The position numbers were made by a program, and so were the translations under genes. Below are positions 14,912-21,864 of a stretch of 47,424 nucleotides of DNA, one piece after another. The stretch lies in the IMG/VR virus record IMGVR_UViG_3300004369_000028, positions 1 through 47,424 of that record; one strand, 5' to 3'. The DNA comes from a virus. Each line of letters opens with the position of its first letter. Position 1 is the stretch's first letter. The notes beneath the pieces are model-generated. The model was given only the letters and a program-made list of their open reading frames with translations, was not told the DNA's origin and made no database searches.

Positions 14912-16513
14912 ATGGCAATTAAGATTAACGGTCAAGTCGTAATAGATGATAGCCGTAACATCACGAATGTAGGTACAGTAGATGGCAGAAATGTGTCTTC
15001 TGATGGAACAAAGTTAGATACTGTAGACACCAATGCTGATGTTACAGCCGATAATCTTGAGTCTGCACTTACTGGTTTTGGTACTATTACTTCCTTAGAA
15101 GGGTCCGATATTCTACCAGTATACGACAGTTCTGCTGGACTATGGAAAAAAGCAACTATCACAAACTCTGCCCTTGTTGGGCCAACAGGACCTACGGGTG
15201 CTACAGGCTCTAAGGGACAAAAAGGTGATACGGGCTTAACTGGCTCTAAAGGACAAAAGGGTGAGTTAGGTGACACAGGACCTACTGGACCTACAGGCTC
15301 AACTGGTGATACAGGACCTACAGGTGCTAAAGGCCAAAAGGGTGAAATAGGTGCTACTGGACCTACGGGTGCTAAAGGTAACACAGGTGATACAGGGCCT
15401 ACAGGACCTACTGGTCCTACAGGACCTACAGGTGCTAAAGGACAGAAAGGTGAAATAGGTGCCACTGGACCTACTGGACCTGATGGACCTACAGGACCAA
15501 CTGGACCTACAGGACCAACTGGACCTCAAGGTGCTAAAGGACAAAAGGGTGAAATAGGTGCCACAGGACCTACAGGATCAACTGGACCTACTGGACCTCA
15601 AGGTGCTAAAGGACAAAAGGGTGAAGTGGGTGCTACAGGACCTACAGGACCTGATGGACCTACAGGACCAACTGGATTAACAGGGCCTACTGGTGCTAAA
15701 GGTAACACAGGTGCTACTGGACCTACTGGACCTCAAGGTGCTAAAGGTCAAAAGGGTGAAATAGGTGCTACTGGACCTAATGGACCTACAGGACCTACTG
15801 GACCTACAGGACCAACTGGACCTCAAGGTGCTAAAGGACAGAAAGGTGAAGTAGGTGCCACAGGACCCACTGGTTCTACTGGACCTACAGGACCTCAAGG
15901 TGCTAAAGGTCAAAAGGGTGAAGTAGGTAACACTGGACCTACTGGACCTACTGGACCTACTGGGCCTACTGGTGCTAAAGGCCAGAAAGGTGAAGTAGGT
16001 AACACTGGACCTACTGGCGGTACAGGACCTACTGGTGCTAAAGGTCAAAAGGGTCAAACGGGTGCTACAGGACCTACAGGACCTACTGGACCTACAGGTG
16101 CTAAAGGCCAGAAAGGTGAAGTAGGTAACACAGGACCTACAGGACCTACTGGACCAACTGGACCTACAGGTGCTAAAGGTCAAAAGGGTGAAGTAGGTAA
16201 CACTGGACCTACAGGACCTACAGGACCAGCAGGACCAACGGGACCTTCAGGTGGCACAGGTGCTAAAGGTCAAAAGGGAGATACTGGTGCTACAGGACCC
16301 ACAGGTGCCTCTGGTGTGAGTGCTATTAGTGGTTTGTATTACACTGGTTATGCTGGTGGTGCTGGATTCAACGGAAACTGGGGGCCTATTAATGTTGCTC
16401 TTAGTTATAATGACTGGTTGGCCTGTGGGACAAACTACTATACATACGGTGTAAAATACAGTGAAACCACTTACACCTTGTACGCCATTAGAAAAAAATA
16501 TAGGACTTACTAA
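14912..16513 (+). CDS. collagen-like fibre protein
   Basis: 533 aa. An 89-aa N-terminal domain is followed by about 126 uninterrupted G-X-Y triplets (15179..16312) dominated by GPT and by G(A/S)K-GQK-GE(I/V). A globular C-terminal domain of about 66 aa ends the protein. Confidence 0.9.
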
Positions 16514-16929
16514 TGCCTTGGATTATGTTTAACCCAGACAATTCTTTTTGTTCAATAAGCAACGAAAGGTTTAGAACAGACTTCATGTCAAAATGTGGAC
16601 CTGAAAATTTTCAGGTTTATTTAGAGTCCGATCAAATTGATGATTATCCAGAAGATGAAATATCATTACTATGGTATGACCCTGAAACAAACCGTGCTGT
16701 GTTCAATGAAGAACAAGTTCTTGTTGGCTCTGAAAGGTATAAAGGTCAGCTTCTTGAATGGTTAGAGGCTTATCAAGGCGTACCTTTAGATCAAATTCCT
16801 GATGGAGAAACTTTATATAATCAATGTGTAAGTTATTTAGGAAAAGACAGAACAGAATCTTATTGGGCAGACGGCTTTATTGACGCAAATGAAATGACAG
16901 AAATTCAAAATCTTTTGGACGAAAGTTAA
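16513..16929 (+). CDS. hypothetical acidic protein (possibly a fibre assembly factor)
   Basis: 138 aa. Its start overlaps the collagen gene stop (TAATG). Position is the only argument for a chaperone role. Confidence 0.5.
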   Translation: MPWIMFNPDNSFCSISNERFRTDFMSKCGPENFQVYLESDQIDDYPEDEISLLWYDPETNRAVFNEEQVLVGSERYKGQLLEWLEAYQGVPLDQIPDGETLYNQCVSYLGKDRTESYWADGFIDANEMTEIQNLLDES

Positions 16930-19502: not shown

Positions 19503-20044
19503 ATAAGTTTTTTGTAGAAATAGGTGCAGCAAACTTTGATACACTTTTAAATCTGGCTAAACAGGGTTGGTCGGGTATTGTTGTTGAGCCTGTGCCATAT
19601 CTGTCTAAAGAACTTTCTACTATGTTTGAAGGTCTTGATGTGCATGTTTATGATGGTGCCATATCAGATTTTTACGGAACGGTTACTATGGCTGTGGGAG
19701 AAAACGAGGGTTGGTTGACTGGTGCCTCTCATATTATAGATGATCACAGTATTGGGTTTAAACTTAGTTCCCACGAAAAAAACAAATACAGGTTCCAAGA
19801 GAAAATTCAAGTTAAATGTATAACATTGGACGACTTGTTAAAAGACATAGATCATATAGACTTTATGAAGGTTGATGTAGAGGGGCATGAACTTAATATC
19901 TTTAGGAATTATTCTTTTAGGGTAAAGCCTAATTTTATTAAGGTTGAACATAAGCACGTTGATGACATAGAGTTAAAGTCTATTTTAGAGGATAAGGGAT
20001 ATATAGTCTGGACCGAACCTGACGATATTTATGCGGTATGTTAA
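19493..20044 (+). CDS. FkbM-family methyltransferase
   Basis: Track ORF 19475..20044 trimmed to MAVNKFFVEIGAANFD. The hallmark is IDFMKVDVEGHELNIF. Confidence 0.85.
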   Translation: MAVNKFFVEIGAANFDTLLNLAKQGWSGIVVEPVPYLSKELSTMFEGLDVHVYDGAISDFYGTVTMAVGENEGWLTGASHIIDDHSIGFKLSSHEKNKYRFQEKIQVKCITLDDLLKDIDHIDFMKVDVEGHELNIFRNYSFRVKPNFIKVEHKHVDDIELKSILEDKGYIVWTEPDDIYAVC

Positions 20045-21864
20045 TCTATCAAATATCTCTCAATTGTGATGCTTATGATGCACGTAATAAAACTTGGGAA
20101 GAAATGATAGCCGAAACTGGCAAGCAACCAGATTTTGAATGGAAGAACCCTGATATGGGCGAAAGGCCATTACTAAAAGGTGAGTATGGATGTGCTATTA
20201 GTCACCTAAGAGTTTGGGAAAAGATTGCCCGTAGTGGTTTAAATGGTATAATTTTAGAAGAAGATGCAGTTTTCAAAGAGATTAACCCTTACTATGTAGA
20301 CCATAAGCTAGAGGACTACGACAGTGTTTGGCTTGGGTACAACAAGAACACTTTTGGTTATTGGTATAATTGTCACGCATATGCTATAACACCTGATACA
20401 GCACATAAGTTAATGGATAATTTTCATAAGATTATACCTGTTGATGAATACGTACCAGTACAATTAAAACATAGTAGAAACTATTTTTATGAGCCAGCTA
20501 CAGTTTGGCAAATACCCCGTGAAATCCGACCTAGCACTATTGAGGAACCCGAAATGGAAAATGAAGAAGATATAAATTTCCACATTGTAACCGTAGCCAC
20601 AGACGAAAAAAAGATGTGGGCTTTAGAAAAAACAGCAGAACGGTATAATCTTAATGTACACAACTTAGGTAAAAACTCATCTTGGTATGACCCAATGACA
20701 GGTCATGCAGGTATGCCTAAAATTGACATGATGATTGAGTTTACAAAAGATTTACCAGCCGACGACATTGTTCTTTTTATGGACGGTTATGACACCTTTT
20801 TTGCCGACGACCCAATTGCCATACTAGAAAGGTGGAAGGGTTTTGACGTAGATATTTTATTTGGTGCAGAAGATAATTTCTGGCCCCCAGATGATTTTTT
20901 GCAGAAACAGTTCGATACGCACCACTCAGACACGGTATACCCCTATTTAAACAGTGGTTTATATATGGGATATGCTGGAGCAATCTACGCATTCCTAACT
21001 GAACAAGCAGCAGGTGATGGAGATGATGATCAACGGTATTGTCAAATACGGTACTTAGCACGTACACCCCCACCAAAAGATGCACCTATACAGTGGAAAT
21101 GGGAACGAATAGACTTTCCTTATAAAATTGCTATGGACCATGAAGCATACTTGTTTCAGAACCATGATATGACTGTTAAGAGAGTTAATGGTCAACTTTA
21201 TAACCCCCGAACAAACTGTTGTCCTTGTATATATCATGGCAATGGGGGAGAAGGGGCTAAGGAAAAGTTTAAAGATTTGTTGTTAGAGTTTAATGTAACT
21301 GAAAAAGCACAAGCACCTTACATTATGACTTTAGATTACGAAGTTGTAGCTAACGAAATTATTGTAACCCCTTTCTTATCAGAACCACAATGTCAATGGC
21401 TAATTGAAAAGTCTGAATTACACGGTGGTTGGCGTGGTATGGATGGTGACAAGTTTCCAGCACGTGAGATACGACTACGTGAACTTGGTTTGTGGGATGA
21501 ATATGATAGGCTATGGCGTGAAAAGCTATCTAAAGTAGCAGAAAAACATTGGCAAGGATATGCTTATGAGGGTCTGCGTGATGCTTTTACAATGAAGTAT
21601 ACTTTAGATACACAAACAAGTTTAGCCCTTCATACAGATGGCTCTATGGTTACTGGAAGTGTTAAACTAAATGATGATTACGAGGGGGCAGAGTTAATAT
21701 TCCCCCGTCAGAGGTTTAGTAACATTGATGTACCAGTGGGACATTGTATATTATTTCCTAGTATGGTTACTCATGCTCACTACGTTAGTGAACTAACCCG
21801 TGGTGAAAAGTATAGTCTAACAATGTGGACCTCACGTCAACCTAATGATGTAGCATTTAGCTAG
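20038..21864 (+). CDS. tri-domain enzyme: GT25-like glycosyltransferase + LH3(PLOD)-like glycosyltransferase + lysyl-hydroxylase-like 2OG-Fe(II) oxygenase
   Basis: 608 aa. Residues 1-170 carry LLKGEYGCAISHLRVWEKI...GIILEEDAVF (GT25). Residues 181-320 carry FHIVTVATDEKK...FMDGYDTFF...LFGAEDNFWPP...YLNSGLYMGYA (compare LH3 VTVAT / VDSYDVI / LFSAESFCWP / FLNSGGFIGFA). Residues 440-608 carry LALHTDGS...NDDYEGAELIFPRQ...THAHYVSELTRGEKYSLTMW (HxD...H...K). Confidence 0.8.
   Translation: MLIYQISLNCDAYDARNKTWEEMIAETGKQPDFEWKNPDMGERPLLKGEYGCAISHLRVWEKIARSGLNGIILEEDAVFKEINPYYVDHKLEDYDSVWLGYNKNTFGYWYNCHAYAITPDTAHKLMDNFHKIIPVDEYVPVQLKHSRNYFYEPATVWQIPREIRPSTIEEPEMENEEDINFHIVTVATDEKKMWALEKTAERYNLNVHNLGKNSSWYDPMTGHAGMPKIDMMIEFTKDLPADDIVLFMDGYDTFFADDPIAILERWKGFDVDILFGAEDNFWPPDDFLQKQFDTHHSDTVYPYLNSGLYMGYAGAIYAFLTEQAAGDGDDDQRYCQIRYLARTPPPKDAPIQWKWERIDFPYKIAMDHEAYLFQNHDMTVKRVNGQLYNPRTNCCPCIYHGNGGEGAKEKFKDLLLEFNVTEKAQAPYIMTLDYEVVANEIIVTPFLSEPQCQWLIEKSELHGGWRGMDGDKFPAREIRLRELGLWDEYDRLWREKLSKVAEKHWQGYAYEGLRDAFTMKYTLDTQTSLALHTDGSMVTGSVKLNDDYEGAELIFPRQRFSNIDVPVGHCILFPSMVTHAHYVSELTRGEKYSLTMWTSRQPNDVAFS

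Follow-up and report, generated by a model that had tools for sequence, protein, structure and literature searches.

A collagen-like fibre gene and a downstream lysyl hydroxylase/glycosyltransferase-like fusion in marine tailed phages

The combination of a collagen with enzymes that modify its lysine residues has been found described only for animals and for giant viruses. The human enzymes are LH3/PLOD3, with lysyl hydroxylase (LH) and glycosyltransferase (GT) domains, and GLT25D1/COLGALT1; the consensus for glycosylation of hydroxylysine (Hyl) in animals is GXKG(E/D), and animal prolyl 4-hydroxylases (P4H) act on proline in the Y position of the G-X-Y triplet. Threonine is glycosylated in two further collagens, namely the cuticle collagen of the hydrothermal vent worm Riftia, where it is galactosylated, and the GPT-rich exosporium protein BclA of Bacillus anthracis, where it is O-glycosylated; the enzymes acting on BclA are unrelated cellular genes, and to our knowledge neither system involves lysine hydroxylation. 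Mimivirus, a giant virus of amoebae, encodes collagens such as L71 together with L230 (LH and Hyl glucosyltransferase), L593 (P4H), R699 (galactosylhydroxylysyl glucosyltransferase, GGT) and R655 (GLT25D-like) as separate enzymes (PMC9546862, PMC12279948), and phages are mentioned in neither of these two papers. Ordinary collagen-like phage tail fibres and prophage proteins are modular trimers with a conserved anchor, a collagen shaft, a variable tip and sometimes a chaperone, and we found no dedicated modification enzymes described for them in the literature. Here we analysed the viral record IMGVR_UViG_3300004369_000028 (positions 1 to 47,424; this whole stretch of 47,424 nucleotides is called the window), a phage genome of ~47 kb in which a collagen-like gene is followed by an enzyme cassette that closes with a fusion of three domains related to the collagen enzymes of animals. 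Open reading frames (ORFs) are named by their first position. We consider it likely that ORF 14912 encodes a trimeric virion fibre with a collagen shaft that is matured by the enzymes encoded immediately downstream; full-text literature searches turned up no account of a system of this kind in a tailed phage, as had been supposed in an earlier reading of this DNA made from the letters alone (the original prediction).

The product of ORF 20038 (20038..21864, + strand) has 608 aa and the domain order GT25 - PLOD GT - LH. This is the fusion that had been predicted, and profile searches together with comparison to the sequences of solved structures place its domains inside the GT25 and PLOD families, where a position outside them would have counted against the prediction. 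Domain 1 (20038..20547, ~aa 1-170), a GT25/COLGALT-type putative hydroxylysine galactosyltransferase, matches PF01755 over aa 11-82 (E=5e-12, 46.5 bits, cut-off 24), and when used alone, the N-terminal 180 aa retrieve COLGALT1 in its catalytic GT2 domain (E=6e-8) as well as R655 of mimivirus (E=0.0026). Domain 2 (20575..21249, aa 180-404), a PLOD/LH3-type GT and putative galactosyl-hydroxylysine glucosyltransferase, matches PF25342 over its whole length (E=2.9e-31, 109 bits, cut-off 27). Domain 3 (21328..21864, ~aa 431-608) is of the lysyl-hydroxylase type of 2-oxoglutarate (2OG)-Fe(II) oxygenases; residues 566-734 of LH3 align with aa 441-596 (i-E=4.8e-8), and the LH domain of mimivirus L230 is matched at E=1.9e-6. 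In the PDB the fusion protein retrieves human LH3 over both the GT and the LH domain (E=1e-22), mimivirus R699 (E=1.6e-12) and COLGALT1, so that three of the mimivirus enzymes (L230, R699 and R655) are matched directly by phage domains.

Catalytic residues were compared in an alignment of 10 diverse fusion homologs, down to 40% identity, and the residues expected for all three modules are kept. In the GT25 domain E74 and D76 are invariant; E74-E75-D76 aligns with the 'FEDD' of human COLGALT1, a cyanophage homolog has E-D-D, and Glu-Asp-Asp is the unusual motif with which the catalytic GT2 domain of COLGALT1 binds Mn2+ (PMC12003778). The PLOD GT domain keeps D249, D252, D330-D331-Q332 and H400-G-N-G without exception, of which D249/D252 and D330-D331-Q332 align with 'VDSYD' and 'DDDQ' of LH3. 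We take H400-G-N-G to correspond to the HGNG histidine of the PLOD GT. In mimivirus R699, D83 and D86 bind Mn2+ (PMC12279948). In the LH domain H532-x-D534, H579, H581 and K591 are invariant, with H532-x-D534 and H579/H581 aligned to 'HHD' and 'HYH' of LH3.

The phage protein is thus homologous to the human pathway in each catalytic module (HxD...H in LH, DxxD, poly-Asp and His in the PLOD GT, Glu-x-Asp in COLGALT), and as in the human pathway its candidate substrate carries Lys in Y followed by G-E or G-Q. It differs in that three activities would reside in one 608-aa chain, in the order GT25 - GT - LH. Judging from the domain boundaries, ~25 residues between the end of the GT domain (aa 404) and the start of LH homology (~aa 431) would leave no room for the accessory (AC) domain of LH3, and the ~170-aa first domain, which matches GT2 only, probably leaves none for the non-catalytic GT1 domain of COLGALT1. 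Moreover, the proposed site of modification is the bacterial cytoplasm instead of the endoplasmic reticulum, and the fibre substrate lacks Y-position Pro. With mimivirus the phage shares a virus-encoded set of collagen-like proteins plus LH-, GT- and P4H-type enzymes; the mimivirus enzymes are separate, whereas the tailed phage of marine bacteria carries a tri-domain fusion directly downstream of the putative substrate gene.

This substrate gene (14912..16513, + strand) encodes a 533-aa collagen-like putative virion fibre protein that matches Pfam Collagen PF01391 with E=7e-59 (195.9 bits, cut-off 27.2). An N-terminal domain of ~89 aa is followed by a G-X-Y region (aa 90-470) and a C-terminal tip of 63 aa. 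We counted 127 triplets without interruption where about 126 had been claimed; 74 are GxT and 30 GxK (mostly GAK-GQK-GE[VI]), and Pro occurs 55 times in X and 0 times in Y. Many PHROG tail-fibre families match the product, mainly via the repeat, and the long antisense ORFs that cover the repeat are most likely its by-products. Among related phages 30 loci conserve the N-terminal domain (~90 aa), the C-terminal domain is hypervariable, its 39 sequences falling into 17 clusters, and a tail-fibre assembly chaperone (PF16778) lies directly after the collagen gene in 19 loci. This is how phage fibres are commonly built, with an anchor at one end and an interchangeable tip at the other.

The association of the two genes was followed through a comparison set of ~90 related loci (denoted by L numbers). 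The fusion is common in viruses, with 425 proteins and, in a separate count, 419 viral contigs, and it is nearly absent from 185,579 species genomes, where 7 matches were obtained, all on contigs of metagenome-assembled (MAG) or single-amplified (SAG) genomes. Where at least 6 kb of sequence precede the fusion (36 loci), a same-strand collagen ORF lies upstream of it in 34 loci, and none lies elsewhere. The two exceptions are L056, which has an interrupted collagen-like fibre with KGQKGEV units, and L091, which matches the LH-like domain only; hence every full-length fusion with at least 6 kb upstream (35/35) is linked to a same-strand upstream gene for a collagen-like fibre. The original prediction had called for a survey of co-occurrence in related phages and had named wide occurrence of the enzymes in phages devoid of a collagen gene as the result that would speak against it; the fusion is not widespread in such phages.

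The pair is found on at least five phage backbones, comprising the CRP-6 type, a group on 43-62 kb contigs, the loci L087, L088 and L089, and T4-like cyanophages. It is also present in cultured phages, namely Roseobacter phage CRP-6 and the Synechococcus cyanomyoviruses S-CAM9, S-PRM1 and S-8S55. In the cyanophages a collagen segment of 55-59 triplets (GxK-GQK-GE, GPT) is embedded in a tail-fibre protein of 1,452-1,830 aa, whose gene is followed by a small ORF, two 2OG oxygenases and the fusion. Deposited genomes annotate the fusion as 'hypothetical protein' or '2OG-Fe(II) oxygenase', and the CRP-6 paper mentions neither collagen nor glycosyltransferases nor oxygenases.

The composition of the fibres points to the same relationship. 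A set of 49 non-redundant fusion-linked collagen domains comprises 4,773 triplets, and of the Lys residues in these 1,288 are in Y and a single one is in X. Arg was counted 5 times, G-x-K is followed in 95% of cases by a triplet with Q or E in X, and Thr takes 51% of Y positions. As a control, 120 viral collagen-coding stretches were drawn in an unbiased manner by their periodic GGN DNA pattern; the control flanks are short, and 'no fusion' here means none within the locus. Lys fills 27% of Y positions in fusion-linked collagens versus 6.8% in 82 non-redundant control viral collagens without fusion; the control collagens are mostly free of Lys, and 119/120 control loci are free of the fusion. 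In the single control locus that has it (1/120), Lys in Y amounts to 24%. The earlier view of the fibre as the enzyme substrate is supported by this covariation of composition with enzyme content. A separate observation concerns the control locus L172 (IMGVR_UViG_3300017772_000165), whose collagen has 352 triplets with Lys in Y 193 times and Arg 0 times, and whose 9.7-kb locus contains no fusion; it is possible that an enzyme encoded at a distance, or unlinked, modifies its lysines.

A second enzyme, the 193-aa product of ORF 18921 (18921..19502, + strand), tracks proline instead. It had been called a P4H-type 2OG-Fe(II) oxygenase, and it indeed matches PF13640 2OG-FeII_Oxy_3 (E=5.7e-15, 56.5 bits, cut-off 27) and has an intact active site, with H110-x-D112, H170 and R180 invariant in 17 homologs. 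It is distinct from the LH domain of the fusion, of which it had been considered as a possible copy (BLASTP E=0.08). Homologs occur in 18/18 non-redundant loci in which Pro fills at least 13% of X positions and in 0/27 loci with Pro at 9% of X or less, a complete separation (Mann-Whitney p=1e-8). Of the cultured carriers, the cyanophages have an 18921 homolog and CRP-6 has none. Presence and absence switch at least ~5 times on the tree of the fusion protein, and therefore the association is not the effect of a single clade. Four contigs of the control set also carry 18921 homologs. In three of these, all unrelated contigs, the P4H-like gene adjoins a long Pro-rich, Lys-poor collagen in the absence of the fusion; in the fourth, L110, a weak match lies beside a collagen run of only 15 triplets. 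There is thus a double dissociation, in which the fusion tracks Lys and the P4H-like enzyme tracks Pro. A different distribution of proline was seen in L160, where a 1,170-aa Gly-rich collagen-like ORF (3753-7262) has Pro in Y in 49/299 triplets, accompanied by a second ORF of GPQ repeats (X-position Pro 118/166) and a P4H-like gene at 8035-8634.

From homology and covariation, on which all steps of the following scheme are based, we propose how the fibre might be matured. The conserved N-terminal part of the fibre would serve as its anchor and the C-terminal tip would be replaceable, with a triple helix between them that would measure ~110 nm if completely folded. In a first step, dependent on Fe(II) and 2-oxoglutarate, the LH domain of 20038 would convert the Lys at Y of (G-x-K)(G-Q-K)(G-E-x) motifs to hydroxylysine. 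The GT25 domain would then add a hexose to hydroxylysine, which by homology to COLGALT1 would be beta-galactose (Gal) from UDP-Gal, and the PLOD-type GT would extend this sugar, by homology to LH3 and R699 with alpha-glucose (Glc). The 18921 enzyme would hydroxylate the X-position Pro of the abundant G-P-T triplets. Finally, a lineage-variable accessory set (the GT8 enzyme, 17402, the FkbM enzyme, 16930 and 16513) may add or tailor sugars on the Hyl-linked glycan or on Y-position Thr. As in BclA, the phage shaft is rich in G-P-T and G-x-T, and the accessory GTs and methyltransferase could glycosylate its Thr; a methyl-sugar cap may likewise be formed.

Such modifications would lend stability to a triple helix devoid of Pro in Y and would decorate a host-recognition fibre. 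4-Hydroxyproline in the X position of Gly-Hyp-Thr stabilises the collagen helix. Repeats of GPT by themselves are reported to be unstable: without galactose on its Thr, Ac-(Gly-Pro-Thr)10 is a random coil, which provides a rationale for modifying the fibre, and an anomalously high frequency of TGP triplets is a feature of viral collagens (PMC11923368). More tentatively, and as a possibility of which we are less than convinced, tailed phages of abundant marine bacteria and of cyanobacteria might carry a complete and self-contained collagen maturation of metazoan type in the bacterial cytoplasm, in which the tri-domain enzyme alone would lead from Lys through Hyl and Gal-Hyl to Glc-Gal-Hyl, and a second hydroxylase would act specifically on the Pro in X of G-P-T.

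Between the collagen gene and the fusion lie six further genes. All eight ORFs of the cassette are on the + strand, and the run of seven same-strand ORFs after the collagen gene, noticed originally, was borne out, the junctions being overlaps or zero gaps. The overlap is 1 nt at 14912/16513, there is a gap of 0 at 16513/16930, and the overlap at 16930/17402 is 50 nt, or 29 nt with a later start of 17402. From the listed starts the subsequent overlaps are 13 nt (17402/18253), 40 nt (18253/18921), 28 nt (18921/19475) and 7 nt (19475/20038); if translation began at in-frame ATGs further on, at codon 6 in 18921 and at codon 7 in 19475, the respective overlaps would shrink to ~25 and ~10 nt. A 9-nt gap separates 20038 from the next gene, 21874.

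Two of the accessory calls made earlier are upheld by profiles above their curated cut-offs. ORF 18253 (18253..18960, +, 235 aa) is a GT8-family glycosyltransferase by PF01501 (E=2.6e-7, 30.9 bits, cut-off 24.3; aa 49-128 only) and phrog_28018 (E=5e-44), and has a 'DCD' DxD-like motif. It has no sequence match in the PDB and no homolog at E<=1e-3 in the related loci examined, among which GT8 is unique to the window phage. ORF 19475 (19475..20044, +, 189 aa, or 183 aa from the ATG at 19493) encodes an FkbM-family methyltransferase matching PF05050 (E=5.5e-20, 72.6 bits, cut-off 22.7) and TIGR01444 (E=1.4e-13, 51.5 bits, cut-off 37.7), with homologs in 20/45 related loci, often downstream of the fusion.

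Two other calls had to be changed. ORF 17402 (17402..18265, +, 287 aa, or 280 aa from the later start), formerly a plain unknown, probably encodes a further glycosyltransferase of the HP-motif GT-B type (Capsule_synth/GT99-like). The window protein itself has no direct Pfam match; in its family, PF05159 Capsule_synth is matched by 3/8 members (best E=3.9e-8), the profile built from the family has a weak match to WbbB, a GT99 enzyme (5fa0, E=0.003), and H158-P159, E185, S207 and K218 are invariant. The 173-aa product of 16930 (16930..17451, +) had been thought a possible cupin. It is one of a large family of uncharacterised proteins, with 840 representatives at E<0.001, for which single-sequence and profile searches of Pfam, NCBIfam and PDB returned nothing but a short WHTN motif in a lectin, and hhalign gave 0.1% probability against the fusion alignment, so that the cupin call was dropped. 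Invariant in this family are Y89, W97-H98-T99-N100, W153-H154, R162 and G166, and some relatives are fused to Sulfotransfer_2 (carbohydrate-type), GNAT or HD domains. The spacing H-x-N...H...R-x-S recalls 2OG oxygenases, with Asn instead of Asp. AF2 models from 3-sequence alignments were unusable for 16930 (pLDDT 39.9) as well as 17402 (pLDDT 37.9).

The first cassette gene after the collagen, 16513 (16513..16929, +), encodes an acidic protein of 138 aa with no match in Pfam, PHROG or NCBIfam. Its homologs occur in L054 and L065 only, adjoining homologs of 16930 and 17402. As a stand-in for the tail-fibre assembly chaperone it was rejected: hhalign found no similarity, and both proteins co-occur in L054. 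Across 38 loci the interval between collagen gene and fusion holds 39 protein clusters, including fibre-tip modules, radical-SAM/SPASM enzymes, further 2OG oxygenases and DUF6065. From this variability it follows that the core of the system is the fibre and the fusion, plus the P4H-like enzyme where the fibre has Pro, and that the other window enzymes are lineage-specific extras. Homologs of 17402 are tandemly duplicated in L007, L059 and L067. Radical-SAM/SPASM enzymes were seen in the fibre cassettes of L007, L054, L059 and L067 (e.g. L054:8085-8987, L059:4194-5114) and, in the loci examined, always accompany homologs of 16930 and 17402.

The backbone of the window genome is similar to that of phage CRP-6, and the fibre-like genes and the enzyme cassette are placed between the portal and protease genes. 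The order is terminase (10389-11741), Mu-type portal (11742-13091), fibre block and cassette, XkdF-type protease (23603-24550), major capsid (25751-26731), tail tube (28795-29700) and tape measure (30521-32854). Directly upstream of the collagen gene, 13475..14893 (+) encodes a non-collagenous fibre protein of 472 aa with a C-terminal (T-G-N/D-V/L/I)n repeat, which matches orf22 of PDB 9efk (E=3.3e-17), weakly the T4 gp5 beta-helix, and PHROG tail-fibre and head-decoration families. The repeat corresponds to a 12/24-nt tandem repeat at 14577-14724 ('GNVTGNLTGNVTGNVTGDVTGDITGDVTGNVT...'), for which the likeness to the gp5 beta-helix is weak and which also yields a run of N-x-T sequons. The 123-aa protein of 13093-13464, after the portal, is conserved in CRP-6-type phages and weakly resembles the 'fiber I protein gp80' of Ralstonia podophage GP4 (PF23140 E=0.0016; PDB 8jou E=0.087), a likeness that hints at attachment of the fibre block near the portal or neck.

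Downstream of the fusion, 21874..23280 (+) encodes an acidic repeat-containing protein of 468 aa, conserved in CRP-6-type phages, with recurring '...SATMQEDETLS...' segments and no Pfam or PHROG match; it is followed by a 107-aa BppU_N/Rib Ig-like protein (23280-23603). Elsewhere, on the - strand, lie a further 2OG-FeII_Oxy_3 oxygenase of 182 aa (40262-40810, E=1.3e-7), far from the cassette and adjoining phoH (41091-41810), as well as genes for a sigma-70 region-2-like protein (3054-3545), ThyX (3709-4407) and a B12-dependent class II ribonucleotide reductase (42457-44355). The G+C content of the cassette (17001-21000) is 0.35-0.38, the minimum of the genome, compared with 0.40-0.45 elsewhere, and therefore suggests that the cassette was gained through horizontal gene transfer. 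Megablast of the region against GenBank phages gave 41 nt of collagen repeat as the sole match. The strongest terminator-like hairpins, at 9521 and 26740, flank the terminase-to-capsid block that contains the cassette, and the collagen gene and the enzymes may belong to one putative late structural transcription unit.

Several observations weigh against maturation of the collagen fibre by the cassette enzymes. Identity between 20038 and its distant homologs among characterised enzymes is ~25-35% over the domains, COLGALT1 aligns with aa 35-80 and 106-145 only, and 2OG-FeII_Oxy_3 on aa 529-598 scores 24.2 bits, below the cut-off of 27; the donor sugars and linkages assigned to its GTs would derive solely from distant homologs. 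The invariant K591 occupies the position of the 2OG-binding Arg of LH3; in collagen P4Hs, a Lys binds the C5 carboxylate of 2OG. The nearest solved relatives of 18921 are PKHD/PiuC-type hydroxylases, whose substrate is unclear, and not collagen P4Hs, and Pro is found in X only, so that its reaction would differ from the Y-position 4-hydroxylation of animals. Two cassette genes (16513 and 16930) have no assignable function, and GT25, GT8 and Capsule_synth are in bacteria mostly families of lipopolysaccharide (LPS) or capsule enzymes. Many of the loci compared belong to one phage group, so that the counts do not represent independent events, and promoter and terminator scans gave counts not above those in shuffled sequence; of their output, the two strongest hairpins alone are informative.

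Among other explanations, the target of the enzymes could be a different protein of the virion, for example the fibre encoded by 13475, the acidic repeat protein encoded by 21874 or the capsid, with the collagen as a mere neighbour in a block of fibre genes. Several fibre-like and repeat proteins do flank the cassette, and CRP-6-type loci conserve a 21874 homolog immediately after the fusion. Nevertheless, the cyanomyovirus, L087, L088 and L089 loci lack homologs of 21874 and 13093 and yet keep the fusion-collagen pair, the collagen's own Lys and Pro content tracks the enzymes, and collagen sequences of the form G-X-K are the substrates of the LH and COLGALT families; we regard this explanation as very unlikely. 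Still less probable appears an action of the glycosyltransferases, and perhaps of the oxygenases, on host LPS or capsule for superinfection exclusion or receptor masking, in which case the adjacency of the fibre would be incidental. The bacterial families just named agree with such a role, one source labels a homolog 'GR25 family glycosyltransferase involved in LPS biosynthesis', phrog_61 is classed by PHROGs as moron/auxiliary metabolic, and the accessory genes are hypervariable, as in O-antigen loci. On the other hand, the GT25 domain shares one polypeptide with a PLOD-type GT and an LH-type oxygenase, for which the nearest solved relatives are collagen enzymes, fusion and collagen fibres keep a strict same-strand synteny on several backbones, substrate composition covaries with the enzymes, the genes lie inside the structural block between portal and capsid, and cellular genomes are almost devoid of the fusion. 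The least probable alternative is that the 2OG oxygenases are auxiliary metabolic or nucleic-acid/ribosome-directed enzymes unrelated to collagen: the cyanophage literature proposes DNA-repair roles and lists 2OG-Fe(II) oxygenases as auxiliary metabolic genes (AMGs) (PMC9146016), 18921 has PKHD/PiuC-type relatives and the window has another such oxygenase next to phoH, but the complete separation of 18921 homologs by X-position Pro over several independent transitions, the recurrence of the P4H-like/Pro-rich collagen pairing in unrelated contigs and the covalent fusion of the LH domain to two collagen-type GTs speak against it.

Maturation of the fibre by the cassette enzymes is therefore the explanation we prefer, and it can be tested directly, since substrate and enzyme genes come in pairs and the hosts of CRP-6, S-CAM9, S-PRM1 and S-8S55 are in culture. 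A compact enzyme native to the bacterial cytoplasm could also aid the production of hydroxylated and glycosylated recombinant collagen, which is not yet achievable in bacterial expression systems (PMC9546862). The carriers are abundant, as the number of viral contigs with the fusion indicates, and the CRP-6 group has been reported to be ubiquitous in the ocean (PMC6918029). The role of the 2OG-Fe(II) oxygenase/P4H genes of marine phages has been termed 'cryptic' (PMC9301287), and DNA repair or auxiliary metabolism has been assigned to them (PMC9146016). Should the more tentative view of a complete metazoan-type maturation hold, a subset of the '2OG-Fe(II) oxygenase AMGs' of marine phages would be maturation enzymes of virion fibres, and phages would constitute a large unrecognised reservoir of the LH and COLGALT enzyme families. 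If our main reading is true, some of the multi-copy 2OG-Fe(II) oxygenase/P4H genes of these phages would gain a testable function, and enzymatic hydroxylation and glycosylation of collagen would extend from animals and giant viruses to tailed phages.

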